Origin: a virus
Virus record (IMG/VR): IMGVR_UViG_3300021962_000046
Span: 1 to 64,000 of that record
Direction: 5' to 3' (one strand)
Length of the DNA stretch: 64,000 bases
In this document: piece by piece, positions 1,298 to 43,795 of the stretch
How the letters are laid out: each line of letters starts with the position of its first letter
How positions within the stretch are numbered: position 1 is the stretch's first letter
Notes under the pieces: generated by a model
The model's database searches: none
What the model saw: only the letters and a program-made list of their open reading frames with translations
Told to the model about the DNA's origin: nothing
Program-made: the position numbers and the translations under genes

Positions 1298-3562
<2,265 letters not shown>

Positions 3563-22683: not shown

Positions 22684-23634
22684 ATGGCTAATGATAGAAA
22701 AATAGAAAATTTAAATACTACATCAGGCATTGCTTCTAGTGATTTTTTTGCTGTTGCAACCTCTGGTTATCCGACCCAAAAAGCAACAATTGCACAAGTT
22801 GCAGCAGCAATAACGCCTAGCAACAGCATAGCAAGTGGAAACCTTTCTGTTTTGATTGGATCAACAGCCGACACCAGAAAAGGTTTATCTCAAACAACAA
22901 ATTTACAATACAATCAAAATGTTAATCCAACTTTGATTATTGGCTCTGGCTCTTTGGTATCTAATGCAAGTGGATTAAATGTTGTTGGTCAGAGTTTGAA
23001 TGCATTGGATATAAACACCAATTCAGCAAACATTTATGCTTCTGGAACTGCAAATTCAATCAATTTAACAACTTCAAGTTCTTTGTCTAGTGATCAAACA
23101 TGGGTTTTACCTAATGTTGCATCTGGCAGTTCTGGTAAAAGTCTTTACATAAGTTCATTGAGTTCTGGAAATTCAGTTGTAAATTTGGACTTTCAATTTC
23201 CCAAAATTGGAATTTACTACAAACAAGGTTCTGACCTTAGCGTTCCAAATGCAACCAATACAGTTTTACAAAACTACTTCCTTCAAGGAACAGATACAAC
23301 TGGATTAACTGTAAATGCTACCAGCGGTACATTTACAAATAATACTGGTGGAGATGTTTTGATAAGAACTACAATGAATTTACTTTGGGATATAAATTCT
23401 TCAGGAAGCAGAGTAGCTTGGGTGTCCATAAATAGTGGCGGGACAATAAGAAGATGTCAATCTTTTGCAGCAGCAGGAACAAATTTTAGTGCAAACAATG
23501 TCTCTGAAGTTTTCACTCTTTCTAGTGGAAGCACAATGAACATTCAATGCTGGCAAAACGCTGGCGCAAATGTTCTTTTAAAGTCTACATTATTAAACGG
23601 AAATACAAGTGTTATAATCGAAAGATTAGTATAA
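22684..23634 (+). CDS. Tail-fibre-like protein, paralog of 21507..22553
   Basis: RKIENL...DFFAV N-terminus; C-terminal W..NSSG.RVA...WQN.G.N shared with the 21507 ORF. Confidence 0.65.
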   Translation: MANDRKIENLNTTSGIASSDFFAVATSGYPTQKATIAQVAAAITPSNSIASGNLSVLIGSTADTRKGLSQTTNLQYNQNVNPTLIIGSGSLVSNASGLNVVGQSLNALDINTNSANIYASGTANSINLTTSSSLSSDQTWVLPNVASGSSGKSLYISSLSSGNSVVNLDFQFPKIGIYYKQGSDLSVPNATNTVLQNYFLQGTDTTGLTVNATSGTFTNNTGGDVLIRTTMNLLWDINSSGSRVAWVSINSGGTIRRCQSFAAAGTNFSANNVSEVFTLSSGSTMNIQCWQNAGANVLLKSTLLNGNTSVIIERLV

Positions 23635-23656: not shown

Positions 23657-26600
23657 ATGCCTTTTACTTGGGAAATAACAAAAGGAAATTTACCAGCTGG
23701 ATTATCACTAGATCCAAATACTGGTGTAGTTTCTGGAATTCCTACAGAAGAACTTGTTTATACAAGTGTTACCGTAAAAGTAAGTGACGGATTTAGTTCT
23801 TCAGAAAGAGAACTTTATTTTGGTTCTTCTCCTAATGAAAAACCATATACGGCAGGGACATTGTTGGATTGGTACGATCCATATGGTTTATTGGAATTAA
23901 GTAATGGAACTGCTGTATCGTCTTGGTCTGACTTCGGATTGAGAAACAAAGATATAAAACAGTCAGTTTCTTCATTGATGCCAAGTGTTTCTTTGACATC
24001 GGGAAATCTTCCAACAATATTGTCATCTGGTGATGATTATCTTTTATCAGATGGAACAGTAAATCATCAACCATATAAGCAAACAACATTGATAATTTGG
24101 GCAAAACCAACCGTAACAAACAACAATAACAGATTTTTATCTTTGTCGTCTGCCAATTCGTTTGGTGATTCATTTGGCGAAATAGGTCAATCTGCTGCTG
24201 GGCAAGCTGGAACATTTACAAGATTTTTCAAGGGAAGTCCTGTAACCAGTCAATCAACAATATTTTCAAATGATAATTTCTCACTAAACAATTGGTATTT
24301 TTATGCAGTAGTTATCAACCCAGACGATTCACAAGGCTATAAAGTAAGATGTTATCGTGACAATGGTGTTGCTGGATCAAATGTAGTTACACTAGAGGCA
24401 TACTCAACAACATTAACTGATTTTACAGAAGTAGACTCACAATTTATAGGTATGCTTGCATCCTTTGATAGTTCTTCTATAGTAAAAAACTTCTTTACAG
24501 GATATGCTGCCGGATCTCACATTTATGGTAGTGCCTTAACAATAAATCAGTTGCAAGAATTAAGAAACAACACAAATCCACAAACAAGAAAAGCTGGATA
24601 CAATGTGTTTACACTAGAATCTAGTGGTGCTGGAGATACTAAGACAATAAATTTAAATGGCACAGCAAGAAAAATAGATTGGGGTGACGGAACATATACA
24701 GAAGGATTTTTAAATGATAGTATAAGTCACACATATAATACAAAAGACTTTTACAATGTAACAGTATATCCTTGGGATCATTATTTCACAGGCGTTGATG
24801 TAAATGGACAAAATGTTCAAAGATGGCTTTATATTCCTGAATATTCTACCAATATGGATTTAAGAAACAATAGTCTTGATGTCTTTCAAACAAGCAATAT
24901 ATTAACTCAAGTTTACAACTATGCGTCTGCATACAATATAAGAAATGGAACATTAAGGTTAGAAGGCCAAAATCCAACTGCAATACCAAACACGGATGGG
25001 CAAAAAGCATGGTATAAGCTTGTAAATCAATATGGCTGGAATGTTACTGCGGATGGTCCACAACCAACATTAGAATTACTTTCATTTACTATCAGTCCGT
25101 CTTTAAACCAAGTAGCTAGAATTGTTCTTAATGGATATGTAGGTCAAATAGATTGGGGAGATGGAGTAGTTACCAATTGTTTTGGTTATTTTAATTATTT
25201 TACTTTTATTCACACATATGAACAATCATACCAAAACATAGTTGTTTCAATAATTGGAGAAATGACATATTTTGAGTGTTCCAACAATTTAAATATTTTA
25301 AATGTTATTTCAGCAAATCCTTCTCTTCAAACCTTTTATATTACTTCTTCATCAATATCAAGCTTTAATTTCACGCTACCAAATCTACAAGAATTATTTT
25401 TAATAAATTGCAGTATTTCATCTTTAAATCTACAACAATTTCCAAATTTAATAACTTTAAGCTTGTACAACAGTCCAACAGTAACCAGTATGACATTCGG
25501 TCAATTCAACCTGTTTCAAACAATTGCTTTAGTAGGATGTTCTATAAATCAATCTACTATAGATTCTTTACTGATCGGTTTAGCGCAAACAAGTAGCAAC
25601 AATATATTAGAACTAAGATTAGACAGAGGAAGCGGTCTTTCTGGCACAAATTCAGCACCAAGCTCTACCGGATTGGCAGCAGCTAATACCATAGCTTGTC
25701 GTGGAATAATAGAAACTTTTACTATATGGAATGGAACACAAAATGTGAATGTCGAATGTGTTAATCCATCGACCACAACCACAACATCAACAACATCGAC
25801 AACAACCACAGAAGCTCCATGCATAAATGTTGTAAGTGCAGAAAGAATAAATTACTCATCATCTGTCTGTTCAAATTTATACTGGAGTAATACTCAACTT
25901 GGTCCACTAGGAGTCCCAGTATATGGAACAATGTCTTTTACTGTTGAAGAAAGTTCAACTTTATATTACACAATAAATTCAAATATACAAGTGTATAATG
26001 GAATTAATTTAAAACTTAACAATAATACTATAAGAAATTTTCCTGGTAGTACTTCCTTCGCATTTGGACAACTAAATGTATCTTATAATGACTTAATATC
26101 AGTAGAATGTTATGTACAAGCAAATAGTGCCATTAGTGCAGGCGAAATAAACGGAACTTTCAACACAGTATTTTTACCAACAACAACGACATTGCCTCCA
26201 CCAGAAACAACTGTTTTATCAAACATAAGTGCAAGTGTGACTGGAAGTGTTGCTCTTCCACCTAATGGTACTTCAACACCATTTCAAATTCAATTCACAG
26301 CACCAGATAATACAGTTAGTTTGGGATATGCATCGCTTACTTTGGCTTTAGTTGCAACATCAAATATTACTCCAACAACATACTTGTCAATAGGATTATC
26401 TTTTGTTCAAAATCCTAGTGAAAGTGATTGGAATGATTATGAGATAAACAGCGTTGGCAATGTTACAGCAGGAACTCCTTTTACAGCAACAATACCTTTA
26501 TCAGAAGAAGTAACATTTGTGCCAAGAAAACCAATGAGTGGAGTAAATTACATCAACATAAGATCAACAAGAATATTCTTCCCAGTAGTACCAACATTCT

Positions 26601-27577
26601 CTTGGTGCTATAACGCATCAGCAAATCCAAGTGGCATATGGACATTTGATCAATATAATAATTTCTCCATAGGAAAAGGGTTGTTTACAATAAATGTTTA
26701 CCTTCAAGGTAGCACAACTACAACTACAAGTACTACAAGCACAACAACTACAACAACTCCTAGGCCAGCCATATCAGTTTTAGCGAATTCAAATTGGAAT
26801 TATACACAACAAAATGCACAAACCATTCAAATATCAAACCAAGCACTTTCTGGTAATTCATGCAACTTAGAATTAGGCCTGTCGAATAGTGGAACGCTTT
26901 ATTTCAACATATTCAACAATGCTTCTGGAAACAACTATATTTCTCTATTTAAAAATGGAGAAAGCTACGGAAATTCAATAGCCCCAGGATCAAACTTAAC
27001 ATCATCAACACCAATGCAACTTGGAGATAGATTTGAAATAGTTGGAAATACTCTATTAGACCCTAGCACTCCAGCTGGATCTTTCTCAGGAACTCTTTCT
27101 ACATATCCAATACCTTCACTATCTTTCAATGGTATTAATTTTTACAATTCTATTTTTGCATCATTGCAAAATGAAAACAAAGAATATTCAAACTATGAAG
27201 TTTTAGATGTTTTCTATATGCAGTTTGAAACAACAGAAAACATAAAAATAAAATCTATAAAAATAAAATTAGATTTTATAAAAAATCAAAATAATCTTAT
27301 GCAAATGAGTTTTTCAACAAACGGAATAGAATGGATTGGTTCAACAGGCAAAAAAACAAATGATGGAATGTATGAATTTGACATATCAAATTTAAATCTT
27401 TCTGTAAATTCAATAAATACTTTGGGTATAAAAAATCCCTTAAAAGACAGGCAAGAAATACTTGTTTATACAAATCAAACAGGTAATTTCAATGGGATTT
27501 GGAGATACATTCAAGCTTTGAATTTGCAAGGAGATCCTATTTTTATACTAAATGTTGAGGGCGAAACAAATGGCTAA
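23657..27577 (+). CDS. Modular virion/surface protein: partial He_PIG, LamG-like, PKD x2, LRR, beta repeats (smaller paralog of the giant ORF)
   Basis: FTWEITKGNLPAGLSLDPNTGVVSGIP; LLDWYD; IDWGDG twice; LQELFLINC; Thr tracts. SD AGGAG. Confidence 0.8.
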   Translation: MPFTWEITKGNLPAGLSLDPNTGVVSGIPTEELVYTSVTVKVSDGFSSSERELYFGSSPNEKPYTAGTLLDWYDPYGLLELSNGTAVSSWSDFGLRNKDIKQSVSSLMPSVSLTSGNLPTILSSGDDYLLSDGTVNHQPYKQTTLIIWAKPTVTNNNNRFLSLSSANSFGDSFGEIGQSAAGQAGTFTRFFKGSPVTSQSTIFSNDNFSLNNWYFYAVVINPDDSQGYKVRCYRDNGVAGSNVVTLEAYSTTLTDFTEVDSQFIGMLASFDSSSIVKNFFTGYAAGSHIYGSALTINQLQELRNNTNPQTRKAGYNVFTLESSGAGDTKTINLNGTARKIDWGDGTYTEGFLNDSISHTYNTKDFYNVTVYPWDHYFTGVDVNGQNVQRWLYIPEYSTNMDLRNNSLDVFQTSNILTQVYNYASAYNIRNGTLRLEGQNPTAIPNTDGQKAWYKLVNQYGWNVTADGPQPTLELLSFTISPSLNQVARIVLNGYVGQIDWGDGVVTNCFGYFNYFTFIHTYEQSYQNIVVSIIGEMTYFECSNNLNILNVISANPSLQTFYITSSSISSFNFTLPNLQELFLINCSISSLNLQQFPNLITLSLYNSPTVTSMTFGQFNLFQTIALVGCSINQSTIDSLLIGLAQTSSNNILELRLDRGSGLSGTNSAPSSTGLAAANTIACRGIIETFTIWNGTQNVNVECVNPSTTTTTSTTSTTTTEAPCINVVSAERINYSSSVCSNLYWSNTQLGPLGVPVYGTMSFTVEESSTLYYTINSNIQVYNGINLKLNNNTIRNFPGSTSFAFGQLNVSYNDLISVECYVQANSAISAGEINGTFNTVFLPTTTTLPPPETTVLSNISASVTGSVALPPNGTSTPFQIQFTAPDNTVSLGYASLTLALVATSNITPTTYLSIGLSFVQNPSESDWNDYEINSVGNVTAGTPFTATIPLSEEVTFVPRKPMSGVNYINIRSTRIFFPVVPTFSWCYNASANPSGIWTFDQYNNFSIGKGLFTINVYLQGSTTTTTSTTSTTTTTTPRPAISVLANSNWNYTQQNAQTIQISNQALSGNSCNLELGLSNSGTLYFNIFNNASGNNYISLFKNGESYGNSIAPGSNLTSSTPMQLGDRFEIVGNTLLDPSTPAGSFSGTLSTYPIPSLSFNGINFYNSIFASLQNENKEYSNYEVLDVFYMQFETTENIKIKSIKIKLDFIKNQNNLMQMSFSTNGIEWIGSTGKKTNDGMYEFDISNLNLSVNSINTLGIKNPLKDRQEILVYTNQTGNFNGIWRYIQALNLQGDPIFILNVEGETNG

Positions 27578-28196
27578 TATTCTTCTACAATCTGAAGGTT
27601 ATGCCCCAACAACAGAGATTACACCTAGTGGATGGCAACCTGGATCAATACCACCTGAATGGTATTCCTTATTGTCAGCTGGTAGAATCCAGCAATATTA
27701 TAATTTTTCCCCTATCCAACCAAATGGCATACCAAATGGTTTTGATTCCCTCATTAGTGAAAAAGTAAGCGGAAATTACATAGCTCCAGGAAATGGAAGC
27801 ATTGATTTAACATTTATAAACACAGGAACAGAAACGGCAAATGGCAGTCCAATATGCAAAGTCTGGAAAACTGCTGATTTTTCAACTTTTACATCATTGT
27901 CAGACTACTTGACCATAAATAATGTAAATCTTCCTTCAAACACAAATGTTGTTTGTTCAATAGCATGGCCAATTCAAACGCCAATAGCTATGAATAACGA
28001 ATATTTGTTGTTTCAGATTATATGGAAAAACAATTTTGCAAGCGCAGAACAAATACCAAATGCATTGATAAAATTAGTAACAGGATCAACAAGCAAGATA
28101 ACAACATTAAATGATCCCACAATACCTGTCCAAGCACTTGACCTTGGAGAAAACAGAGTGTTGGTATTACAGTTTGGACAATTTTTATCAACATAA
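27570..28196 (+). CDS. Stand-alone copy of a domain also embedded in the giant ORF
   Basis: NNEYLLFQIIW here versus NNEYLFFTVAW at about 17935-17970. Start moved to the ATG at 27570 (SD GAGGG), which overlaps the upstream stop. Confidence 0.65.
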   Translation: MANILLQSEGYAPTTEITPSGWQPGSIPPEWYSLLSAGRIQQYYNFSPIQPNGIPNGFDSLISEKVSGNYIAPGNGSIDLTFINTGTETANGSPICKVWKTADFSTFTSLSDYLTINNVNLPSNTNVVCSIAWPIQTPIAMNNEYLLFQIIWKNNFASAEQIPNALIKLVTGSTSKITTLNDPTIPVQALDLGENRVLVLQFGQFLST

Positions 28197-28227
28197 TAAA
28201 TAATTTAAAGGTTATTTTAGGAGAGAT

Positions 28228-30378
28228 ATGGCAGTACAACAAGTAACAATAGCACAATTAGCATCGGGAACACCAGCGAATACCGATGCCGTAATTTTTG
28301 CAGATAGCACAGGAACTGCTTATCAAACCCAAGCTTGGAACTTGGTTAGACAAGGACTTGTTCCACCAAATTCTTCAACACCTGTAGACATAACTATTGC
28401 TGCCCAACAAAGCACAACAAGTGGTGCAGCTGGTGGCAACATAAATCTTAAATTTTCAAATAATTCAGCAGTAAACATTCGAAATCAAGCAAATAGTACT
28501 GTGTTTAGCTTCACAGGATCTGGCTTTGTAGCACCGGGTCAGTTCTCCATGAACAGCACAGTTGCAGATTTCCAAAATCAAATAGCTCTAAATGCAACAG
28601 AAGTATCCCCCGTAGGTTCCTCCAGCGAGGTATATGTTGGAGATAACAATATAATTTATTTGCAACCAAGTCAGGATTTTAATTTACTTGGAATAAGCAC
28701 AGCACAAGAAGCATCTGTTTTAAACGGAACATTCCTGACCATCAAGAATAATAGCAATTTCAATGTTACACTTAAAGATAATTCATCAGCAAATCCAACA
28801 AATAAATTGGTCATAGGAAGTGACTATCAATTACAAGAAGGAAGCGCAATCCATCTTGTTTATACACAATCTTCTGGTGGTTGGGGTCTTTTTGCTCCAG
28901 AACAACAAATATTACCTTTGACATCTGGTAATGTTGCACCTATTATCGGCAACGATTTAAACAACAACCTTCGTTATTCAAACAATTTTTATCTAGAAAA
29001 CAATGGTGTATACGAAGGAATCCTTTGGAATAGCGGTCAAGGAGGATTAACAAAAAATTTATCCACGGAAGATGTTTCGATTTCAGCAAGTTATTTGACA
29101 TTAAATGCAAATGCTGGATATGTTCCAAGCTTAAATTTTGTTCAAAACACAAGTCAAGTAACAATACAAGCATCACAAACAGGATCTTCTGGGAATTACA
29201 CACTAACATTACCAGAATCTTTTGCATCACAAAGTGGATTTGCACTAGTTGGAAGCACAAGTGGAAAACTATCATGGGCTAATGCTGCTGGCATTTATCA
29301 GATAATAAACTCGCCAACAGCATCTGGTGTTGTAGCAAGTGGTTATTTGGCTTACGCTTCAAGTACAAATAATGAAAAAGCACTTGTTAGTGATGTTGTT
29401 AAAGTCGGCTTAATTCAATCAAATACGAATGTCAAAAACGATTTAACAATAAAGCCTTCTAATGTTACAAGTGGAAATGTAGGATCTGATTTGATACTAC
29501 AACTTGCAACAGGAACATCTGCTTATGGAAACTTGAATATTTCTACACAAATAAGTGGAAATTTAATTCAAAAAATAAATGATAAAACCATAACAAATTA
29601 TGTTCCTACTGTAGAAAACAATCAGACAATAACACAGGTTTCATCTGGTAACTTATGGTCAACATATCCATTAATTACCATCGCTTCTGGGTTGCCTAAT
29701 TTAAAGATTTCATCTTTTACAAGTTCGGGAAGTGCATCAGCATTTGAAGGTCAAATATTAACAGTAAGAAACTCTTCTGCCAATTATTTTGAATGTGTTG
29801 AAGATGCAAGTGTTCTTGTTGGTGGCATTTCAGTTCCAGACAGCGCACCAAGCATTATTTTAGCACCAAACTCTGTGAATAAATTTCAATATATTAGCAA
29901 TAAGTGGAATTTAATAGGTGATTATAATTATACACCTAATGCAAGAATAATATTGGCATCAGGATTTACAACATCATCAAATTCTGCTGATATAAACAAT
30001 TTGATTCTAGCCAGCGGAAGCACTTTACTTGGAACTGGTCTTGAATTACTTTCGGGTGGAAGAGGATTCCAAAATGTTGCTGGCAAGCCTTTGACATACA
30101 AGCTTGGTTATACAGTATCATTTGGTATTGGTGGAGATCTAAACTATAGAACAGCAGCATTAAACCTAAATGGCCTTGGTTCAACAATGGTTGCTGCTAG
30201 CATGGTTTCAATACCACAAACTGGCAACAATGGACTTTCATTATCAGCAGAAACAATTTACACTCTACAATCTGGAAATTCGTTTGTACTAAATGTATCG
30301 CAATTCACAGGAACATTCCCTGTGGAATCATCTTCCAATCGTGGCGTAACACAAATGTATGCGGAATTGCTAAAATAA
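28228..30378 (+). CDS. Tail-fibre-like protein with internal duplication and C1q-like tip
   Basis: VTIAQL...DAVIF N-terminus; YTLTLP...SGKLSW shaft motif; collinear paralog of the 30388 ORF. SD AGGAG. Confidence 0.65.
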   Translation: MAVQQVTIAQLASGTPANTDAVIFADSTGTAYQTQAWNLVRQGLVPPNSSTPVDITIAAQQSTTSGAAGGNINLKFSNNSAVNIRNQANSTVFSFTGSGFVAPGQFSMNSTVADFQNQIALNATEVSPVGSSSEVYVGDNNIIYLQPSQDFNLLGISTAQEASVLNGTFLTIKNNSNFNVTLKDNSSANPTNKLVIGSDYQLQEGSAIHLVYTQSSGGWGLFAPEQQILPLTSGNVAPIIGNDLNNNLRYSNNFYLENNGVYEGILWNSGQGGLTKNLSTEDVSISASYLTLNANAGYVPSLNFVQNTSQVTIQASQTGSSGNYTLTLPESFASQSGFALVGSTSGKLSWANAAGIYQIINSPTASGVVASGYLAYASSTNNEKALVSDVVKVGLIQSNTNVKNDLTIKPSNVTSGNVGSDLILQLATGTSAYGNLNISTQISGNLIQKINDKTITNYVPTVENNQTITQVSSGNLWSTYPLITIASGLPNLKISSFTSSGSASAFEGQILTVRNSSANYFECVEDASVLVGGISVPDSAPSIILAPNSVNKFQYISNKWNLIGDYNYTPNARIILASGFTTSSNSADINNLILASGSTLLGTGLELLSGGRGFQNVAGKPLTYKLGYTVSFGIGGDLNYRTAALNLNGLGSTMVAASMVSIPQTGNNGLSLSAETIYTLQSGNSFVLNVSQFTGTFPVESSSNRGVTQMYAELLK

Positions 30379-30387
30379 AGGAAATCC

Positions 30388-32925
30388 ATGCCAAAGATAA
30401 CAGAACTACCGCAAAACATACCATCAAATCAAGATTTAGTTTTAATTCAAAAGCCAACTTCTGGATTTCCTAATAAATCTGATGTTTGGAATTTTGTTAA
30501 AAATAATTTAATACCAATAAATTCTGATTCTCCACAAGACACAACCATTGCAGCACAAGGTGGAGTATCTGGAACTATAGGCAAGAATTTAAATTTAAAA
30601 TTATCAACCAACAAAAAAATAAGTATTATTGATCAAAATAACAATGAAGTTGCTTATTTTGATGCCACCACATTTGATTTTACAAATGTATTTACAAGTA
30701 CTGAGAATTATGCAAGGTTTCAAAATCAAATGAAAGTAAACCTTGATTTTAGAAATTATACATCATCACCACAAACATTAGTTGCAAATAAAAATAATTT
30801 TATAATTATAAATACAAACCAAGATCTCACAATAACAAATATATTAACAGATCAAGGAAATAGCATTGCAGATGGAACATTTGTTTTCATTAAAAACGAA
30901 AGTTCTTTCAACATATCATTATCCACTACAAACTTTAATTCTTCCATACCACACACAATTCCATCGTCTGATATTGCGTTATGCGTATGGCGCACTTCTG
31001 TTACAAAATGGGAGGTGTGTGATTACAAAATAAATGTTCAACCAAATATTGGTGTCAATAAACAAAAATTATCAATTGTTGGAAACAATAGTGGATTTAT
31101 AAATGAATCTTTTTATACAAATATTTCTTATCCATTAAATTCTGGGAATACATGGACAGAATATCTTGGTTTTCCTTACGAAACATTATCAACTTTTATT
31201 TTAAGAAACGATACCAATTCTTCACCAAATAAAGGACAAAGAATAAACATATCTTTAACGAATACTATTGGCTCTTCAGATATAGCAGGAGGTATTTATA
31301 GAGCAACAACTGATGGTACACTTAACTTTCAATCAGATCTTACATCAAAGCCAACATACAATTATTTGCAAGTGTTTATAAATGGAAGTTTTTATACTTC
31401 AAAGCAAGGTGGTCAAATATTATCTGGCAGTATAGCTTTTTCCAGCGGAAGTCTTTTTGATATTAGATTTAGGACACTCTCTGGTACATTAACACCTCCA
31501 TTAACAGCATTTGTAGAAAATTTAACGCCTGTATCACCACCCGGAATACAAGCAGCAAATCAAAGCCAACCAACACAAACATCTGTTTTAAAATTAAACA
31601 GAATCAACCTAAATGATTCAATAACACTAGAATCTCAAAACAACAGCAATATAAAAACAGGTTTAAAAATTGACAATTTAAACTCATCATATAATTTATA
31701 TTTGCCAGCACAACTTCCTACAGTAAATAATCAAATTATAACAACAGATGGAACAGGCAATTTATCATATAAAACTGTTGACATCTACACAATTAACAAC
31801 AATACTCAAGCTTCACCAATAAGTAGTGGTTTTATTGCAATAGATGTGGGAAATGGCAATGAAAAAGCATCTATTGAAAATATTGTAAAAACATCAGTAA
31901 ACAGTCAAGATTCTTATTTGGCAAACGACCTGTTGATTAGACCATCAAATAATAGTTCTGGCTTGGCCTCTGATTTTGTTTTGATGCAATCTACTGGAAC
32001 AAGTGGCAATGGACAAATTAGCGTAAATGCATCTGGAACTCTGGTTAACTATAACGAAAGAACTATTACACAATATGTGCCAAAAGTAGAAAACATACAA
32101 TTTGCCAACATAACAACAGCATCTGGGACAGTTAGCTGGGGATCTTATGATTCTGTTGTTATAGCAAGCGGTTTAAACCAAGCAAATATTGCAAGTTTTG
32201 GATCTGGAATAGAAGGTCAAAATTTACTTGTAACAAACAAATCAACAAGTTCATTTTCTCTATCTGACGATGGCAGTACTGGTGGAATACTAATTCCTGC
32301 AAATCTTCCAAATATAGTCTTGCATCCAAATACTTCTATTGAATTTACTTATACAAATAACAAATGGAGAGCAAGCAATTTACCACCAAGAAAATCTTAC
32401 TTAAAGATGGATTTAACTAATTTCACTCAAGCTACGGGTATTCCAACAAAAATTCAAAATCTGAACATTTCCGATGGTGGAACATTTGGAACAGGATTGT
32501 CTTTTGATTCTGTAAATAACAGATTAATAAATGTTGCCGAAAAACCCTTGTCTTTTAAAACATGTTGGAATATGCGTTTTGGATATGGGTCACCAACTAC
32601 TGCAACTTTGCCTTCAGCTGTAGCTGCTGAAAGAACTTGTTATGTTGCAATAAACGATAATGTTAATTCAGGAATGATCGCTGGTAGTTCTAAGTCTATG
32701 TGCAAAAATAGATTCAACAATGACACAACACAAACTATGTGCAACACAGGTGCTGGTATATTTACTTTGAATAGTGGACAATATGTTTCATTGTATGCTA
32801 TTGCTCCATATGATGGAGTTGGTCCAGCCAGCGGATTTTTGACAAGTAGAATAACACCGGGAGAAAATCTTCCTAATTCCTCCCGGTTTGCATCTTCAGC
32901 TTGGTGTATTGAACTTTTAAGCTAA
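30388..32925 (+). CDS. Tail-fibre-like protein, paralog of 28228..30378 with an extra inserted module
   Basis: MPKITEL N-terminus; YNLYLP...TDGTGNLSY; NVAEKPLSFK versus NVAGKPLTYK. Confidence 0.65.
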   Translation: MPKITELPQNIPSNQDLVLIQKPTSGFPNKSDVWNFVKNNLIPINSDSPQDTTIAAQGGVSGTIGKNLNLKLSTNKKISIIDQNNNEVAYFDATTFDFTNVFTSTENYARFQNQMKVNLDFRNYTSSPQTLVANKNNFIIINTNQDLTITNILTDQGNSIADGTFVFIKNESSFNISLSTTNFNSSIPHTIPSSDIALCVWRTSVTKWEVCDYKINVQPNIGVNKQKLSIVGNNSGFINESFYTNISYPLNSGNTWTEYLGFPYETLSTFILRNDTNSSPNKGQRINISLTNTIGSSDIAGGIYRATTDGTLNFQSDLTSKPTYNYLQVFINGSFYTSKQGGQILSGSIAFSSGSLFDIRFRTLSGTLTPPLTAFVENLTPVSPPGIQAANQSQPTQTSVLKLNRINLNDSITLESQNNSNIKTGLKIDNLNSSYNLYLPAQLPTVNNQIITTDGTGNLSYKTVDIYTINNNTQASPISSGFIAIDVGNGNEKASIENIVKTSVNSQDSYLANDLLIRPSNNSSGLASDFVLMQSTGTSGNGQISVNASGTLVNYNERTITQYVPKVENIQFANITTASGTVSWGSYDSVVIASGLNQANIASFGSGIEGQNLLVTNKSTSSFSLSDDGSTGGILIPANLPNIVLHPNTSIEFTYTNNKWRASNLPPRKSYLKMDLTNFTQATGIPTKIQNLNISDGGTFGTGLSFDSVNNRLINVAEKPLSFKTCWNMRFGYGSPTTATLPSAVAAERTCYVAINDNVNSGMIAGSSKSMCKNRFNNDTTQTMCNTGAGIFTLNSGQYVSLYAIAPYDGVGPASGFLTSRITPGENLPNSSRFASSAWCIELLS

Positions 32926-33579
32926 GTTTTCAGAATACACTTTCATTTTATTGAAAATATCTTCGAAATCATTTCTGATAAAGAATGTTGTTCCAACACC
33001 ACTCTTTATTTCAACAGTTTTATAATTTGCTGGAACTACGATCTTATCGTAACTGCACATGCTGACTTCATTTGAATCATGAATGATTACAAAAGGAATG
33101 TTGTTAGCCAATGCTGTATTGGCCAAATCTCCGTTTATAAAAATTGCCGAATCTACGAAAACAACATCAGGATTTTCTGAAGAATATAATGCTTGTGCAT
33201 AACTCTGTAATTCAGAAAGATAAGAAGCATCTACTTTTTCTGGATCTTTCTTTTCAACAATCTGATATTTTACCGCTTCTGATATTGTGTCAGAAACCAC
33301 CCAAAGAACAGAATTCCAATTAGGCAATACTTGCAAAATATTCTTGAAAAAATCGTAATAACTTGGCTGCATGAAATTAGACAAAGCCTCAACGCTTACG
33401 ACTTTGCTGCATTTATCAGCGAAAAACTTAGTCGAATAACCTAGTCCCCATTCCAACAAATTGTTTGGAACATAGAATTTAAAAAATTCTGCCATATGGG
33501 GCAAATGATCTGTATAACGAGTGAATTTTATAATATTTTCATAAACAAAATCTTCTATTTTTTCGAGTTTATCAGTCAT
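32917..33579 (-). CDS. Class I SAM-dependent methyltransferase-like protein (glycan-modifying type)
   Basis: LLEWGLGYST motif I-like, VVSVE, DVVFVD, IIHD pattern. SD GGAGA. Confidence 0.6.
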   Translation of the reverse strand: MTDKLEKIEDFVYENIIKFTRYTDHLPHMAEFFKFYVPNNLLEWGLGYSTKFFADKCSKVVSVEALSNFMQPSYYDFFKNILQVLPNWNSVLWVVSDTISEAVKYQIVEKKDPEKVDASYLSELQSYAQALYSSENPDVVFVDSAIFINGDLANTALANNIPFVIIHDSNEVSMCSYDKIVVPANYKTVEIKSGVGTTFFIRNDFEDIFNKMKVYSENLA

Positions 33580-33593
33580 GTTTTCTCCAAATT

Positions 33594-33623
33594 AAAAAGG
33601 CGCACCCCCTATTGGATGCGCCT
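33594..33623 (-). terminator. Probable intrinsic terminator
   Basis: AGGCGCA..TGCGCCT stem followed by a T run on the minus strand, just after the 33632 stop. Confidence 0.55.
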
Positions 33624-33631
33624 AAAAATGA

Positions 33632-34510
33632 TTAATTAGACCAAACAGGCTCATCAGTTAGATGCTTGTATTTTTCAAAGCCATCTGGATGAACTTCCAA
33701 AAATCTAACTTTGGCTCTTTCTACAAAGTTTTCTGGCTGATTTCTCTTGAACCAGTTACAAACTGTGTTTGGATTCTTGCCAGTTTCATAATAAGCAACT
33801 AGATAATTATAAATCTTGTCAATAATATCAAGCCTGTAGGTGATTGGCTTGCTTCTTAGGAAGCGATGAATCCATCCCAAAGCAGAATGAAGCATCACCT
33901 TTCCACCATTTCTCCTAACAAGCTCATGGACATATCCTTCCTCACCAGCAAAGCCTGAGAAATTAGGACTAAATCCAGGCCAATATTCTTTTTTCATCAA
34001 GAACATTGCGGTTCCATGCATGGGAATTTCTGAAACTGCTGGTAGTGGCCTGCGTGTATCCCAAATGCCGTAGAAATCTCCACGCCACTTTGGTTCCATA
34101 TGAGTAGCAATGACATCTTTGTTTTCATTGAGCAACGGGCCACACCACATATCCTTGCCAATAAAATTACCATTAATTCCATTCATAATATAATCAATTG
34201 CACCAGGTTGCAAAATAACATGGCTATCAAGCAAAAGAACATATTCACCATCTGCATTTTCAAAAACGCTATTTTTGGCGTGTGCTGGACCTTTTTCTTT
34301 TGGACAATGAACATACTTTGATCCAGAAAGACCACAAAGTTGTTCCAAAGATTCTGTTTTCTTTGGAAGGTCATCACACATTAACAATTGAATTTCTGGC
34401 TTTTCTCTTGAATTTCCTGTATGATACATTCTGAGACAAGATGCTGTCCAAAAGGCACCTTCGATATCATCATGACAAGCCCAACCAATAGTTAATTTAT
34501 ATTTAGACAT
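33632..34510 (-). CDS. GT-A fold glycosyltransferase (GT2-like) with polypeptide-GalNAc-transferase-like motifs
   Basis: LLMCDD, GPAHAKN, GEYVLLLDSH (DxH), GFAGEE, GGKV...IHRF...PITY. Confidence 0.8.
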   Translation of the reverse strand: MSKYKLTIGWACHDDIEGAFWTASCLRMYHTGNSREKPEIQLLMCDDLPKKTESLEQLCGLSGSKYVHCPKEKGPAHAKNSVFENADGEYVLLLDSHVILQPGAIDYIMNGINGNFIGKDMWCGPLLNENKDVIATHMEPKWRGDFYGIWDTRRPLPAVSEIPMHGTAMFLMKKEYWPGFSPNFSGFAGEEGYVHELVRRNGGKVMLHSALGWIHRFLRSKPITYRLDIIDKIYNYLVAYYETGKNPNTVCNWFKRNQPENFVERAKVRFLEVHPDGFEKYKHLTDEPVWSN

Positions 34511-34611
34511 TTGTTTCTCCTATATGTTGGTGTGACTATGCACACATTTTCTTTGAAAATATTATAGCGTCAAAACTATAATAAAAAAAAGACTTAATAG
34601 GAAATATTTAA

Positions 34612-35427
34612 ATGTCAAACTTGCCAACAACTGGATTTATACCCGCTCCTGTTTTTATAAAACCAGAAGAAAAATTTTCAGTATTAAAAAATACAGAAAA
34701 ACCAGCTGTTTCTTGTTATTGCAGCACTTATGGAAGACCTACAAGGCTTCTGGAAAGTTCTATTCAATGTTTTTTGAATCAAGATTATGATGGTCCCAAA
34801 GAGCTTGTTATACTAAATGATTTCAATCAACAAGAGTTGGTTTTTGATCATCCCGAAGTAAGGATTATAAATCATCCCGAAAGAATAAAGCCTCTAGGCA
34901 GAAAATTCAACGAAAATATCAAATTGTGCAAGTATGATATACTTGCCTGTTGGGAAGACGATGATATTTTTCTTCCAAATAGACTTTCTTACAGCATTGC
35001 AAACATGCGTAATGGAATATTCCATACTCATCATGCTTTCTTTGAACAAGCAGAAAAAAGTTTTATAAAATCACAAAATATTTTCCACAGCACACATGTT
35101 TTCACAAGGGAACTTTTTAACCAAGTTGGTGGGTATCCAGAAATAGACCAATGTAGTGTCGATATTTCAATAATGGATAGGTTTAGGCAAGCAGTTGGAA
35201 ATTACACACAAGATATAAATGATACAAAAGATTATGTTTATTGTTATGTTTGGGGTGGCGCACAATCATATCATGGTAGTGGATGGGGAGCCTCAAACAC
35301 AAATGTTTCTGATTCAGCTACAGACATAGTACAGATGCAAATTGGACAAGGCCATGTTCGTACAGGCGTAATAAATCTGGAACCGAAATTAAGATATAAT
35401 TTTTATGATTATCTACCAAGAGATTAA
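34612..35427 (+). CDS. Glycosyltransferase family 2
   Basis: VSCYCSTYGRP, FLNQDY..KELVILND, LGRKFN, WEDDD.FLPNRL. Confidence 0.85.
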   Translation: MSNLPTTGFIPAPVFIKPEEKFSVLKNTEKPAVSCYCSTYGRPTRLLESSIQCFLNQDYDGPKELVILNDFNQQELVFDHPEVRIINHPERIKPLGRKFNENIKLCKYDILACWEDDDIFLPNRLSYSIANMRNGIFHTHHAFFEQAEKSFIKSQNIFHSTHVFTRELFNQVGGYPEIDQCSVDISIMDRFRQAVGNYTQDINDTKDYVYCYVWGGAQSYHGSGWGASNTNVSDSATDIVQMQIGQGHVRTGVINLEPKLRYNFYDYLPRD

Positions 35428-35437
35428 AGGAGATTGA

Positions 35438-36313
35438 ATGTCTAAGTTAGATGAGATTTTTGAAAACAAAATAAACACACCGGGAGATATCTCGGAACAT
35501 CTTTTGACACTTAAAAAATATGCAGAAAGATGTGATGTTGTTGTCGAACTTGGTGTTCGCTGGTTGTGCAGCACCTATGCATTTCTTTCAGCAAGACCAA
35601 AGAAATTGTTGTCATTCGACACAGTACATTACAGGAGTCACGGAGCATCTGAAGAAGATTTAAATGAATCTGTTTCAGAATCGGGCACTAGCTTCGAATT
35701 CTTCCAAGAGAATGTCATCACAACAACAAACATTCCAGAATGTGATCTGTTGTTTATTGATACTCTTCATAGTTACAAACAATTAAAATTAGAACTATAT
35801 CTACATGCTACAAAAGCAAGAAAGTACATAATTTTACACGATGTTGTAACATATGGAAATCAAAACGAAGGAGAAGTTGTTTTGCCTGAAAGTTCTTCAG
35901 AAGAAACAAAAAATTATTTTAATTTATTGGTAGAAAGAAAAGGATTAATGCCAGCCGTAACTGAATTCCTCAATGAAAACAACGAATGGAAAATTTGTGA
36001 ATTTTTCGAAAACAACAATGGCTTATGCGTTTTAGAAAAAGTTCCTGTCAATACTGTAAATGGCTTGCCTGTTACTGTAAATGATGCAACCACAACATTT
36101 GTTGAAACACAAAACAAACCATTTGATACAAACACATGTGTCAAAGAAACGAATGTTGATAGTTCAGAAGTTGTTGCAGAACCAACTGTCACGAAAGAAA
36201 CATATCCAGAATTGCCAGATGTAAGACTTGAAATGCCAGAGAATAATCCAGAGCCACAACCAGAAAAGAAGAGTTTGCTGAAGCGAGTTCTTGGTTGGTT
36301 TGGCTGGAAGTAA
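35438..36313 (+). CDS. Class I SAM methyltransferase (Methyltransf_24-like) with low-complexity linker and basic amphipathic tail
   Basis: VVELGVR, DLLFIDTLHSY, IILHD, NNNGL; ends KKSLLKRVLGWFGWK. Confidence 0.8.
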   Translation: MSKLDEIFENKINTPGDISEHLLTLKKYAERCDVVVELGVRWLCSTYAFLSARPKKLLSFDTVHYRSHGASEEDLNESVSESGTSFEFFQENVITTTNIPECDLLFIDTLHSYKQLKLELYLHATKARKYIILHDVVTYGNQNEGEVVLPESSSEETKNYFNLLVERKGLMPAVTEFLNENNEWKICEFFENNNGLCVLEKVPVNTVNGLPVTVNDATTTFVETQNKPFDTNTCVKETNVDSSEVVAEPTVTKETYPELPDVRLEMPENNPEPQPEKKSLLKRVLGWFGWK

Positions 36314-41430: not shown

Positions 41431-43737
41431 TTAACCAAGCATTTCATCAATTTCATCATCAGAATCACCAGCATCAAAAGCTTCTACATCTGGTGATTCC
41501 GTTGCATCTATGGCACTCATAAATGGTTCCAAATATGCAAGAACTTCTTCTTTTGTATTGGCATCAATCAATTTAGGACAATCAATCAATACCTGAATTG
41601 GAACATCATTTCTTTCAATAGAAGACTTAAATTTATATTCTTCTTCTGTTGATGCGTATTCTGGCTTGACTTTAAAGTTGCCAGCACCAGAGGCAATTAT
41701 TCTTTCAGCATCAAGCAAAGCACCCAGCAATCCTCCCAGAGGATTCATGCCTTTTTCAAAAAACAAAGGAATGTTTTCTATCTCAATAAATGGTCTCACA
41801 TTCCTGTTTTTCTTGTTGCTAATCTTTATGTTGATGCCGATGCTTTTCTTCTTAGCCAAACCCGGAACCTTCTGTTCAATCTTCTTTTGGGTTTGTGTTC
41901 GGAAGCGAAGAGACGCATAGAATGGAAGTGCATTTCCACCGCCTGCGGTTGTTTCTGGAGAATTATGAACAATTGCACCATCAACTACATAAGTGTGATT
42001 ATCCTCGATTGCAAGATCAAATTTAACCTTAGATTTAGTTGCTGGCTTCTCATGAATAGCAAGAACCATTGATTTTGCTACATCATAAAGCACAGAATCT
42101 TCATCCACTTCTTGAATTTCATAATTGAATTTACCATGAAAATCTGGATGAATCTTATATTGCATAGAATCTGGCACAAATTGAGCAATCATGCTATGCA
42201 ATTTATAAGTATTCTCAGCATCAAATATAAAACCTTTCTTGTCAATTTTAGCTTTCAAACCAAATTTCTTTTCAAAAATAGGAAGCATGTTTTTCATGTT
42301 TTTGAATTTTACACAACACAAACGAGCCTTGCCCTTGCCCCATTTTGCATAATTTCCACCATAAGTGCCATCATCCAAATACCAAATTGCAAGAGCAAGC
42401 AATCCAATCTTTTCAAATGCAATTTGTGGGATCACACAATCTCTGTTTTCCTGACCCCATTTATATTTTGATTTTCTAAAACCGAATTTGTTCAATTCAG
42501 GCATTGGGATTGTATCAAATCCAACTCTGCGCTCTTCAGAGTAAGAATAACCAACCCAAGGCGACAAAATAGATTCCTTCCATAGACAATATTCTGCTTG
42601 TTTTAACCCATGATTGATTCTTAATTGGGTTGCAGAATAGTTCTTTTTGCCAGTCCTTAGACTGCCATCTCCCAAAATTGAACCAATAACAACTTGTTCT
42701 TGTTCTTGAGTCAAATACTTAGGCTGAACTTGTGCCAGAGTATCACCGATTTTAATTTCACCGGCTGGTTTTTCAATAATTTTATCATCCTCCCACACAA
42801 ACATCATGTGGTTAGGTGTTGCTCCAAATTGTGATACACCATTTCCCCAAGGCTTTGTAGCAGTAAATTGCAAAAATTTCTGTCCTTCTTGCAAATTACC
42901 GTTATTGTGCCAAGCAATAACTTTCTTGGGTTCTACAACACCAGTTTTGGTATTATAAGATAATACTTCAACTGGAATCTTTTGATTGACAATTTTGCCA
43001 ATTTTCATGGTACTACCATCTGCCAACATTACCCTGCTTGAATAATGAAAGCACCCATACATAATTCCAATTTTTTCCCTAATTTGGTTCATAATAACAA
43101 CAGAAACATTATTTTCTTCCATTACTGTATTTAATTTACGAAGCTCTTTAGAACAGATCTTGGCTCTTTCTCCAGGTTGCTCATTGGCACCCACGATTTT
43201 TTTAAACTGTTCTTTGGTATATCCTTCAGGAAGATCAACTTCCCTGAACTCTCTGGAGCAAGGACTGACAGAGATAGAATCATAAACAATAACAATAGGC
43301 TTATCAGCATACTTTTTATTTGAACGAATATGCTCGATTGCCCTATACATCACATGAAAACATTTCTCCAAAGTTTCAGGTGTGTATCTGACGATCTTGT
43401 TCAAATCGGCATGGCTTGCTTTTTTAATAAAATCTTTATTAATAGCATTTTCACTATCAATAAGAATTGGAACACCACCAAGCTTTTGGCATCCAAACAG
43501 CAAGTTTGTTCCCAGTAAAGATTTAGAAGAAGCACTAGGCCCATAAATCTCAGTCAGCCTTCCACCCGGAACGCCACCATTTATGAATCTTCCTGAACAA
43601 CAATAATTAATAGCTAAATTTCCTGTATCAATAAAATACTTGCTTTCTTTTTCACCCTCTCCAACAACCTCACCGCCTGTTTCATTGGCTAAGGTTGAAA
43701 AAATATCATCATCAGTTTCTTTCTTTTGACGAGCCAT
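41431..43737 (-). CDS. uvsX: RecA/UvsX-like recombinase with intein
   Basis: IDTG, GRLTEIYGPSASSKS, IDSENA, YDSI, NQIREKIG, PETTAGGNALPFYASLR. Start at MARQKK with SD GAGGT. Confidence 0.9.
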   Translation of the reverse strand: MARQKKETDDDIFSTLANETGGEVVGEGEKESKYFIDTGNLAINYCCSGRFINGGVPGGRLTEIYGPSASSKSLLGTNLLFGCQKLGGVPILIDSENAINKDFIKKASHADLNKIVRYTPETLEKCFHVMYRAIEHIRSNKKYADKPIVIVYDSISVSPCSREFREVDLPEGYTKEQFKKIVGANEQPGERAKICSKELRKLNTVMEENNVSVVIMNQIREKIGIMYGCFHYSSRVMLADGSTMKIGKIVNQKIPVEVLSYNTKTGVVEPKKVIAWHNNGNLQEGQKFLQFTATKPWGNGVSQFGATPNHMMFVWEDDKIIEKPAGEIKIGDTLAQVQPKYLTQEQEQVVIGSILGDGSLRTGKKNYSATQLRINHGLKQAEYCLWKESILSPWVGYSYSEERRVGFDTIPMPELNKFGFRKSKYKWGQENRDCVIPQIAFEKIGLLALAIWYLDDGTYGGNYAKWGKGKARLCCVKFKNMKNMLPIFEKKFGLKAKIDKKGFIFDAENTYKLHSMIAQFVPDSMQYKIHPDFHGKFNYEIQEVDEDSVLYDVAKSMVLAIHEKPATKSKVKFDLAIEDNHTYVVDGAIVHNSPETTAGGGNALPFYASLRFRTQTQKKIEQKVPGLAKKKSIGINIKISNKKNRNVRPFIEIENIPLFFEKGMNPLGGLLGALLDAERIIASGAGNFKVKPEYASTEEEYKFKSSIERNDVPIQVLIDCPKLIDANTKEEVLAYLEPFMSAIDATESPDVEAFDAGDSDDEIDEMLG
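41962..43053 (-). mobile_element. 364-aa intein with LAGLIDADG homing endonuclease at the RecA-b site
   Basis: G|CFHYSSRVMLADG start, ATPNH block B, IGSILGDG and LAIWYLDDG endonuclease motifs, IVHN|S end. Confidence 0.93.
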
Positions 43738-43795
43738 AAAACACCTCTTTTGATTTGCTTGCAACCCAAATTTATAACTTAAAAATGAACACGAA

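Follow-up and report, generated by a model that had tools for sequence, protein, structure and literature searches.

A phage gene cassette with a GT27-like glycosyltransferase may O-glycosylate the poly-Thr linkers of fibre proteins

The glycosyltransferase GT1 encoded by the phage DNA studied here is, as judged from its structural model, a GT-A enzyme closest in structure to the GT27 polypeptide GalNAc-transferases. A GT27-shaped enzyme, together with a family of relatives that lie beside Thr-run genes in many phages and bacteria, suggests that the phage probably sugar-coats its own fibres. In the fuller reading, which we hold to be somewhat better than even, the phage encodes a system that O-glycosylates its own poly-Thr linkers. 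GT1 would take the first sugar from a nucleotide-sugar of the host and attach it to a tract Thr (or Ser) in the host cytoplasm, a second glycosyltransferase, GT2, would add a further sugar after GT1, the methyltransferase MT2 would O-methylate the resulting glycan, and the glycosylated tract proteins would end up in the virion. The acceptor tracts would be the joints between folded lectin, LRR, and Ig modules of giant fibre proteins. The Thr tract as acceptor, the order of the steps, and the virion destination are what we infer, and the label 'mucin-type' for the predicted sugar transfer is an analogy. We found no publication describing such a system.

To our knowledge, glycosylated virions have been demonstrated in no more than a few actinobacteriophages, and the initiation of mucin-type glycosylation counts as a eukaryotic feature. 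If the prediction holds, many uncultured phages, among them very large phages whose fibres are giant and adhesin-like, would carry on their surface a glycan coat of their own making, with possible effects on stiffness, resistance to proteases, adhesion, and the way hosts or grazers recognise them. A dedicated enzyme would also be assigned to the poly-Thr linkers that have long been noted in proteins of phages and bacteria, and a compact soluble enzyme of 290 residues would be on hand for making O-glycans on Thr tracts in bacteria.

The window is the whole stretch of 64,000 nucleotides that was analysed (IMG/VR record IMGVR_UViG_3300021962_000046, positions 1 to 64,000). The source phage is very large and uncultured, and is known here from DNA alone. 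The first-pass annotation had described a four-gene cassette at 32917-36313, and all four ORFs lie exactly there (Table 1). It had read the genes as methyltransferase, glycosyltransferase, glycosyltransferase, and methyltransferase. This holds for both glycosyltransferases, which match PF00535 above the cut-off, and for the fold of MT2, which is supported by profile and Atlas neighbours, but MT1 is only weakly methyltransferase-like. None of the four proteins contains a hydrophobic segment (the KD19 maximum of GT1 is 1.21), indicating that all are soluble.

Table 1 Features of the cassette and of the upstream genes in the window
Feature	Position	Strand	Size or remark
MT1 ORF	32917-33579	-	220 aa
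GT1 ORF	33632-34510	-	292 aa
GT2 ORF	34612-35427	+	271 aa
MT2 ORF	35438-36313	+	291 aa
Terminator-like hairpin between GT1 and MT1	33598-33623	-	10-bp stem with 7 G-C pairs, then T-rich tail; consensus match only
Divergent intergenic region GT1/GT2	34511-34611		101 bp
Candidate substrate, Thr-tract ORF	2-1273	+	open at 5' end
Candidate substrate, Thr-tract ORF	1298-3562	+
Main candidate substrate, multi-domain fibre/adhesin-like protein	4194-21443	+	5749 aa
Candidate substrate, Thr tracts	21507-22553	+
Match to PHROG virion structural protein, no Thr tract	22684-23634	+	phrog_13989, E 4e-8
Candidate substrate, Thr tracts, He_PIG Ig domain, LRR	23657-27577	+

The AF2 model of GT1 has a pLDDT of 93. 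In a Foldseek search with this model, the list holds GT27 entries down to rank 47, and TarP, at rank 48, is the first match from another family. In a VIA search of 48,161 representative chains, GT1 matches GalNAc-T1 with a Z score of 20.9 (259 aa, 3.3 Å), TgGalNAc-T3 with 20.2, and K4CP with 18.3. In a second VIA search, GT27 accounts for every one of the 28 best PDB entries (Z 19.6-23.0), and the best entry outside GT27 has a Z score of 19.3. About 255 residues (245-269) are aligned with the GT27 entries, at an rmsd of 3.0-3.9 Å and an identity of 11-16%. In particular, residues 4-292 of the GT1 model superpose on residues 136-440 of GalNAc-T2, and the C-terminus of GT1 coincides with the end of the T2 catalytic domain (residue 440). 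GT2 of the phage, modelled alike (pLDDT 86), ranks a GT27 enzyme only 20th (GalNAc-T1, Z 13.7), indicating that the GT27 likeness is specific to GT1. Thus, the earlier proposal that GT1 resembles polypeptide GalNAc-transferases, rather than DNA-base or polysaccharide enzymes, is borne out by the best structural matches. The GT-A fold by itself leaves the acceptor unfixed.

With the GT27 enzymes of known structure (human GalNAc-T2, 6nqt and 2ffu; mouse T1, 8v9q; Toxoplasma T3, 8uhv), GT1 has in common the GT-A catalytic domain (Z up to 23.0) and, presumably, an acceptor that is a Thr-rich, Pro-flanked disordered tract; its D-x-H motif, C-terminal His, and G-E-E 'Gal/GalNAc-T'-like motif may correspond to theirs. 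GT1 differs from them in that it lacks the ricin-type lectin domain, the type II membrane anchor, and the secretory-pathway setting, and in that its sequence ties it to them weakly, with the GT2 family placed first by Pfam and HMM searches.

GT1 matches PF00535 (Glycos_transf_2) with an E value of 2.9e-8 and 34.2 bits against a cut-off of 23.3, as do 24 of 24 aligned family members. However, we take PF00535 to span the N-terminal half of GT27 enzymes as well, so the match cannot separate the GT2 family from GT27. When the GT1 family profile is searched against the PDB, the top matches are GT2-family teichoic-acid and polysaccharide enzymes, and GalNAc-T4 (E 0.0022) and T12 (E 0.0046) rank under them, over about 185 residues. 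The profile aligns GalNAc-T4 and GalNAc-T2 over positions 37-224, whereas the GT2-family hits reach only positions 31-121. Neither the single GT1 sequence against the PDB nor the C-terminal half of the family profile, searched alone, found a GT27 entry. Glyco_transf_7C (PF02709) matches three of the 24 family members weakly (best E 0.0065) and leaves the query unmatched. The GT60 family profile, presumably Pfam 'GlcNAc' (PF11397), is not listed for GT1 or the 24 family members at E values up to 1, and viral proteins named 'Glycosyltransferase, GlcNAc' are distant structural neighbours of GT1 (TM 0.50-0.60).

Three key motifs, D95-S-H97, G186-F-x-G-E-E191, and W213-x-H-R-F217, are invariant across the 24 aligned sequences, whose identity to the query goes down to 34%; the invariant residues are D95, H97, G186, F187, G189, E190, E191, W213, H215, R216, and F217. 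The ends of the profile alignment put D95 and H97 at residues 224 and 226 of T2, and H215 no more than two residues from residue 359. If the metal ligands of GalNAc-T2 are numbered 224, 226, and 359, as we assume, D95, H97, and H215 would be the equivalents of its Mn2+ ligands.

The sequence matches also accord with another role, in which GT1 and GT2 build up or modify a glycan of the host surface (capsule, LPS, or teichoic acid), for instance to hide a receptor after infection, and their adjacency to fibre genes reflects a shared host-interaction module. The nearest solved proteins by sequence are TarP/TarS, chondroitin and heparosan synthases, PglI, and WcaA-type enzymes, both phage enzymes fall in the Pfam GT2-type family, and serotype-converting transferases are known in phages (reviewed in PMC12619734). 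We nevertheless regard this role as unlikely, in that GT27 outranks every polysaccharide enzyme for the GT1 fold, the four cassette proteins are soluble, and no flippase or lipid-carrier gene is found in the cassette. A host-glycan role also leaves unexplained why relatives of GT1 have poly-Thr neighbours from at least seven unrelated families, and have them in bacteria too.

The candidate acceptors lie upstream of the cassette. With a tract defined as at least six T/S/P residues including at least four Thr, five upstream ORFs contain 30 Thr-rich tracts, whereas 200 shuffles of these proteins gave 1.7 on average and never more than 6; the tracts reported earlier in structural-type genes are therefore real. 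In the two most upstream ORFs, the tracts are up to 41 residues long and Thr makes up 18% of each protein. The main candidate substrate has 28 T/S/P tracts, spaced by about 170-390 residues, which join its domains; these include four Laminin_G_3 domains (E 5e-38), LRR, and PKD. One PHROG hit and the gene position suggest that the tract proteins are virion parts. The tract genes had also been said to abut the cassette directly. They do lie upstream, but the three ORFs closest to the cassette (27552-32925) contain no tract, which puts the end of the nearest ORF with a tract at a distance of 5.3 kb. GT1 is on the strand opposite to the tract-bearing ORFs of the window.

Relatives of GT1 also lie near Thr tracts. 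Among 80 viral loci, in which lineages sharing a module are not fully independent, 60 of the 186 ORFs (32%) located within 2 kb upstream of a GT1 relative and on its strand contain Thr tracts (45 loci), as do 17 of 82 at 2-4 kb upstream, compared with 9 of 1,119 (about 1%) at all other positions. The tract proteins belong to at least seven unrelated families after masking, and the genomes range from 35 to 69% G+C. Bacterial GT1 relatives have the same bias (10/109 vs 9/803), and the tract ORFs beside them carry Tat-like leaders, which fits cytoplasmic modification prior to export. Hence, the co-occurrence that the first-pass annotation had wanted tested is found well above positional expectation, in many phage lineages and in bacteria. 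In addition, two loci found by a P-T8-P DNA pattern alone have the genes in the same order, the glycosyltransferase beginning 3 nt beyond the tract ORF in one and 123 nt beyond it in the other, and in a siphovirus relative of 23 kb the cassette comes after the last ORFs with tracts in a block of head, neck, and tail genes. About 22 of some 70 testable viral loci (about a third) have no tract within 10 kb. These include the closest relatives after locus L002, among which the two large contigs have tracts 40-48 kb away.

It is also conceivable, with a probability that we put as low as that of the host-glycan role, that phage proteins are glycosylated away from the Thr tracts, which would be plain flexible linkers, or that GT2 initiates and GT1 extends. 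Of the 120 viral P-T8-P loci that were sampled, only 3 have the GT1-like glycosyltransferase in the fetched stretch and 117 do not, so most viral Thr tracts manage without one nearby, and Thr-rich linkers are common without a dedicated enzyme. In mycobacteriophages, as far as the citing papers describe it, it is the capsid and tail-tube subunits that bear glycans, at their C-termini (Freeman et al. 2023, Cell Host Microbe, cited in PMC12619734 and PMC12801897). According to the same accounts, phage-encoded glycosyltransferases act there within the host cell on proteins of the phage's own particle, as is predicted here from genes, but at subunit C-termini rather than at long poly-Thr linkers of fibre proteins, the candidate sites here. 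Against modification away from the tracts, the positional link is to tract-bearing ORFs from unrelated families. Against initiation by GT2, the likeness to peptide-accepting enzymes is in GT1, not GT2, and many loci have tracts and GT1 without GT2 or MT2, making GT1 the constant partner.

Gene position also bears on a role of GT1 in glycosylating modified phage DNA bases as an anti-restriction measure. Phage glycosyltransferases are best known for such a role and have diverse folds (Pyle et al. 2024, as cited in PMC12619734), and a replication module adjoins the cassette in the window. However, in most relatives GT1 closes the run of tail genes and shares their strand, relatives on bacterial chromosomes are fusions with TPR and glycan-enzyme domains, and no DNA glycosyltransferase is among the structural matches listed for GT1. 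We consider a DNA-base role very improbable.

The GT1-like family comprises more than 1,400 clusters at 50% identity and carries no name in the annotation libraries searched. A tblastn search of GT1 against 50,697 GenBank phage records gave no match at E ≤1e-3. Family members are fused to TPR, GT25, GT2, sulfotransferase, and sialyltransferase-like domains. A bolder possibility, which we put forward only tentatively from sequences and models, is that this soluble GT27-like family performs mucin-like O-glycosylation of poly-Thr tracts across the prokaryotic world. Phages would coat giant fibres and adhesins, bacteria would glycosylate Thr-rich proteins before Tat export, and the family might be a prokaryotic or viral sister, or even a source, of the eukaryotic mucin-initiating enzymes.

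GT2 of the phage is, by sequence and model, an ordinary SpsA-like GT2-type enzyme. It matches PF00535 (E 2.4e-5, 24.7 bits against the cut-off of 23.3) and contains an invariant D116-D-D118 motif. Its profile finds heparosan synthase and SpsA in the PDB (E about 6e-8), and the top VIA matches of its model include SpsA (Z 18.2) and CgT (Z 17.9). Gram-positive serine-rich repeat adhesins are glycosylated by GtfA/GtfB and then by GT-A enzymes that extend the glycan, for example GalT1/CgT (5hea). The system proposed here would resemble them in stepwise cytoplasmic addition of sugars to long Ser/Thr repeats before export or assembly, and in GT2-like extending enzymes. In contrast, the adhesin initiator is a GT-B (GT4) pair whereas the phage candidate is a GT27-like GT-A enzyme, and the adhesin repeats are Ser-rich dipeptides, with export by the accessory Sec system.

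GT2 accompanies GT1 in 30 of the 80 viral loci, and MT2 lies directly 3' of GT2 in 29 loci. This conserved pair, found in about 30 loci and travelling with GT1, fits an 'extend and cap' role. MT2 probably has a class I (Methyltransf_24/CmcI-like) methyltransferase domain at residues 1-205 and an 85-aa C-terminal extension that is absent from other aligned family members. Enzymes of the cation-dependent and CmcI types are its closest known counterparts. Its family profile matches O-methyltransferases in the PDB (E 0.0055), but MT2 itself scores under the Pfam cut-off (PF13578 Methyltransf_24, E 0.0023, 19.2 bits against 26.3). In the Atlas, MT2 neighbours clusters of viral methyltransferases, several of them fused to GT2-family or GT90 domains and some carrying PF13578 or PF04989 (RMNT_CmcI). 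The MT2 family is viral and largely unnamed.

MT1 probably has a methyltransferase-type Rossmann fold. Its matches are weak (CMAS, E 0.005; NCBIfam, E 0.0018 and far under cut-off; PDB, E 0.07), and its Atlas structural neighbours include O-methyltransferases (TM 0.61-0.62). Its membership of the glycosylation system is doubtful: no MT1 homologue is present in the 80 viral GT1 loci, and hhalign finds MT1 unrelated to the MT2 family. Between GT1 and GT2, promoter-like sites are no more numerous than the shuffled expectation; one of them, a sigma-70-like site at 34553-34582 (+), agrees with the consensus at 11 of 12 positions.

All four ORFs that the first-pass annotation grouped into a glycosylation cassette (MT1, GT1, GT2, and MT2) are present at the positions it gave. 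Both predicted glycosyltransferases, GT1 and GT2, score above the Pfam Glycos_transf_2 cut-off. Of the two methyltransferases it named, MT2 is the better supported one: it matches Methyltransf_24 weakly, its family profile matches O-methyltransferases in the PDB, and in the Atlas it sits among viral clusters of methyltransferases, several of which include a fused GT2 or GT90 domain. For MT1, the claim is reduced to a probable methyltransferase fold. The idea that MT1 and MT2 are paralogues was dropped, as hhalign of MT1 against the MT2 family showed no relation. No PHROGs family corresponds to any of the four proteins, and NCBIfam gives matches only far below its cut-offs. GT1, GT2, MT1, and MT2 all lack hydrophobic segments, from which we would expect all four to act in the cytoplasm. 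Residues 206–291 of MT2 (window 36053–36313) form an acidic, Pro-rich C-terminal extension of 85 residues with a basic, Trp-rich end (KKSLLKRVLGWFGWK), which is missing from the other aligned family members, except that its first part is shared with the relative in locus L002.

The source record of the window, of which it forms the first 64 kb, is a linear IMG/VR virus of 106,620 bp with a CheckV completeness of 21%, which suggests a whole genome of several hundred kb. The G+C content of the window is ~34%, and no tRNA gene is found in its 64 kb. Ten plus-strand ORFs in head-to-tail order fill 1–32.9 kb. Identifiable within them are four Laminin_G_3 lectin domains, LRR, PKD, and He_PIG Ig modules, a weak match to a depolymerase β-sandwich, and one match to a PHROG 'virion structural protein'. 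From 36 kb on lies a T4-like replication and repair module with a Hel308-like helicase, a UvsX homologue, a gp32-like SSB, DnaB, Dda, SbcCD, and ribonucleotide reductase. Therefore, the element carrying the cassette is a tailed phage. The UvsX-like recombinase (41431–43764) contains an interrupting segment, similar to LAGLIDADG homing endonucleases (phrog_11023, residues 351–539), that is probably an intein.

The AlphaFold model of GT1 (pLDDT 93, pTM 0.91) was compared with known structures in three ways, which concur that polypeptide GalNAc-transferases (GT27) are the best matches, as the first-pass annotation had anticipated from motif order. In Foldseek against the PDB, these enzymes fill every rank to 47 (E down to 3e-13, query TM 0.60–0.70), and the first other family, TarP, appears at rank 48. 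A Foldseek-independent search returns mouse GalNAc-T1 (Z 20.9, 259 residues, 3.3 Å) and Toxoplasma GalNAc-T3 (Z 20.2), followed by K4 chondroitin polymerase (Z 18.3, 216 residues). In a further structural search, the 28 best entries are all GT27, with Z 19.6–23.0. Residues 4–292 of the model cover residues 136–440 of GalNAc-T2, the catalytic domain as far as the start of the lectin domain. An internal structural control comes from GT2 of the same cassette, for which an equivalent model was made (pLDDT 86). The structures nearest to GT2 are SpsA, heparosan synthase, WrtF, and CgT (Z ~18), and GalNAc-T1 ranks only 20th (Z 13.7); the models thus indicate that the GT27 likeness is specific to GT1 and not general to GT-A folds.

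The sequence link between GT1 and GT27 is weak but consistent. The best PDB matches of the GT1 family profile are GT2-family enzymes, aligned at positions 3–121 only, and over positions 37–224 the profile matches GalNAc-T4 (E 0.0022), T12 (0.0046), and T2 (0.11). Among 24 aligned members with identities to GT1 down to 34%, residues D95, H97, G186, F187, G189, E190, E191, W213, H215, R216, and F217 are invariant. The ends of the T2 alignment put D95/H97 at T2 residues 224/226 and H215 at most two residues from T2 359, positions that we take to be Mn2+ ligands of GalNAc-T2. Weak matches to Glyco_transf_7C, a Pfam domain common to GT7 and GT27 enzymes, occur in three of the 24 members. GT7 enzymes are inverting, GT27 enzymes are retaining, and both have the acidic motif; therefore, the anomeric outcome is not readable from the GT1 sequence. 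A profile of the C-terminal half of the family alone finds no relative among solved structures. Therefore, the GT27 link rests on the fold and the whole-domain alignment, and we do not assign GT1 to GT27. In contrast to GT27 enzymes, GT1 has neither a lectin domain nor a membrane anchor. Classified by sequence, it would probably be placed in GT2 or in a new group.

The family is widespread, with 33 close GT1 clusters in a 90%-identity database and 1,405 representative clusters at E up to 0.001 in a 50%-identity library, many of the latter being domains within proteins of 500–1,350 residues. Relatives occur on at least 509 IMG/VR contigs and in at least 257 stretches of prokaryotic genomes. Among 50,697 GenBank phage records, blastn with the cassette and tblastn with GT1 give no match even at E 1e-3.

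The Thr/Ser/Pro tracts noticed at first pass are real: five upstream ORFs contain 30 Thr-rich tracts (runs of at least six T/S/P residues with at least four Thr), compared with 1.7 expected from shuffles of the same proteins. All four Thr codons occur in the tracts, in the proportions seen for Thr elsewhere in these genes. A single ORF (4194–21443) encodes a protein of 5749 residues in which 28 Thr/Ser/Pro linkers accompany the four Laminin_G_3 domains and modules of the LRR and PKD types; it lacks an export signal and has fibre-type genes around it. Its tracts recur every ~170–390 residues, that is, at domain-sized intervals, as linkers would. The cassette does directly abut the structural-type genes, but the three ORFs nearest to it carry no tracts.

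To assess whether GT1 relatives go with such tracts, we use 80 viral loci (34–88% identity to GT1, G+C 27–69%). In 45 of them, a same-strand Thr-tract ORF lies at most 2 kb upstream; the gap between its end and the GT1-family gene is often a few to ~400 nt. The control is the positional distribution within the same loci; the neighbouring helicase, as a control anchor in a single-protein query, found no relatives. After removal of overlapping frames, tract ORFs account for 60/186 ORFs at ≤2 kb upstream on the same strand and 17/82 at 2–4 kb, versus 9/1,119 in the remaining bins, taken over both sides and both strands, in line with the predicted co-occurrence. Once the tracts are masked, the tract proteins fall into 22 clusters, and between at least seven phage groups no similarity is detectable. 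What the GT1 family associates with is therefore the Thr tract and not one protein family. In a maximum-likelihood tree, the association is spread across the whole family. The GT1 of the window falls within a clade of 43 rows that is well supported and contains viruses only; of its 36 testable loci, 31 carry tracts at a distance of 4 kb or less.

In the reverse direction, we scanned IMG/VR for DNA encoding P-T8-P and obtained a sample of 120 stretches (mean 8.6 kb). Three contain a GT1 relative: one is the close relative of the window, and in the other two the glycosyltransferase starts 3 and 123 nt after the tract ORF. The family accounts for roughly one protein cluster in a million, so three of 120 is a large excess; the same count means that an enzyme of this family is absent from the vicinity of most viral Thr tracts. 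Conversely, no tract lies within 10 kb in ~22 viral loci with enough flank, including the closest relatives after L002 (69–72% identity). These relatives come from four contigs: in the two large contigs (165 and 87 kb), Thr-tract clusters lie 40–48 kb from the glycosyltransferase, and the two small fragments have no Thr tracts.

In bacteria, the GT1-family domain usually lies in proteins of ~600 residues, behind an N-terminal extension of ~330 residues; other fusions in the family involve TPR repeats, GT25, GT2, sulfotransferase, DUF7164, and a sialyltransferase-like domain. With overlapping frames removed, tract ORFs make up 10/109 ORFs at ≤2 kb upstream on the same strand versus 9/803 elsewhere. 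We prefer this filtered count to the unfiltered six-frame count in high-G+C bacterial loci (39/79), which is probably inflated by wrong-frame ORFs. Eleven of 14 inspected upstream tract ORFs are small and combine a twin-arginine-type leader (S/T-R-R-x-[VL], then a hydrophobic stretch) with a C-terminal poly-Thr tract. These bacteria include Chloroflexota, Thermomicrobiota, Acidobacteriota, Actinomycetota, and Alpha- and Gammaproteobacteria. This arrangement suggests glycosylation in the cytoplasm followed by Tat export, and a soluble enzyme with a substrate leaving by a folded-protein route argues for a protein acceptor. Modification of host-surface glycans, the role that the sequence matches favour, is unlikely: the proteins are soluble, the association is specific to tracts, and the fold ranking speaks against it.

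We therefore consider it reasonably likely that the cassette glycosylates the Thr linkers of the fibre proteins. We propose that GT1, late in infection, recognises the extended Thr/Pro linkers of freshly synthesised fibre proteins and primes them with a sugar taken from a host nucleotide-sugar, using its presumed D-x-H/His metal site. The next sugar would come from GT2, an inverting-type D-D-D enzyme, and MT2 would methylate it. If these products are present in the virion, its lectin, LRR, and Ig modules would be separated by spacers that are stiffened and resist proteases. The genes, folds, motifs, and neighbourhoods are observed; from them we infer the acceptor, the step order, the sugar, and the virion location of the products. 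Neither an epimerase gene nor another GT2 gene is present in the 106-kb record; therefore, nothing indicates the donor sugar.

GT2 homologues are found in 30 and MT2 homologues in 29 of the 80 viral loci, MT2 always directly 3′ of GT2, and MT1 homologues in none. In a ~23-kb siphovirus relative, major head protein, adaptor, neck, and tail genes are followed by two tract ORFs, GT1, four ORFs, GT2, and MT2, and then by replication genes on the opposite strand. In many loci (e.g., L046–L054, L065, L069, and L077), tracts and GT1 occur without GT2 or MT2; therefore, the initiating step is assigned to GT1. Swapped roles of GT1 and GT2, or protein glycosylation at other sites, we regard as improbable.

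Recent papers describe phage glycosyltransferases only in DNA modification, serotype conversion, and a mycobacteriophage case (PMC12619734; PMC12801897). DNA glycosylation is a very improbable role for this cassette. Linker glycosylation would belong to the known phenomenon of phage self-glycosylation, and in the literature we found no description of poly-Thr proteins paired with a GT27-like enzyme from phages. The window adds an occurrence in a very large phage, with 28 linkers in one fibre protein, and offers the GT1/GT2 structural contrast, the conserved GT2–MT2 pair, and the positional control for the tract association.

Coordinates of the cassette, further tract ORFs, and genes near GT1 relatives (L numbers, loci with GT1 relatives)
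Feature	Location	Remark
MT1	32917–33579 (−)	220 aa
GT1	33632–34510 (−)	292 aa
GT2	34612–35427 (+)	271 aa
MT2	35438–36313 (+)	291 aa
Tract ORF	92798–94600	full record, beyond the window
Tract ORF	100725–102731	full record, beyond the window
ORF with leader and poly-Thr tract	L224, L231, L278, L259, L286, L219, L270, L290, L253, L285	bacterial loci; small proteins, twin-arginine-type leader; directly upstream of GT1-family gene
GT4-GT2-Methyltransf_24 fusion	L007:11293–13755	821 aa; after GT1, 192-kb viral contig
GT2-TPR protein	L007:13773–14885	same 192-kb contig
Papain-family cysteine peptidase (Peptidase_C1, E 3.5e-6)	L010:11727–12608	between GT1 and GT2–MT2 pair, one phage group
Major tropism determinant N-terminal domain (Mtd_N) gene	L065:10958–12067	after GT1
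Mtd_N gene with phage tail repeats	L077:10943–12631	after GT1

The Mtd_N genes set GT1 among fibre genes in two loci; fibre genes of this type can be targets of diversity-generating retroelements. The fusion and the GT2-TPR protein of L007 are part of a glycosylation island of ~8 kb, whose final members are a GT2–MT2 pair. In the metagenomic protein P0031 (447 aa), a GT1-family domain is fused to Glyco_transf_29 (sialyltransferase-like), and its nearest viral relatives (L134:8777–9901 and L168:3572–4363) lie directly after P-T-rich ORFs.
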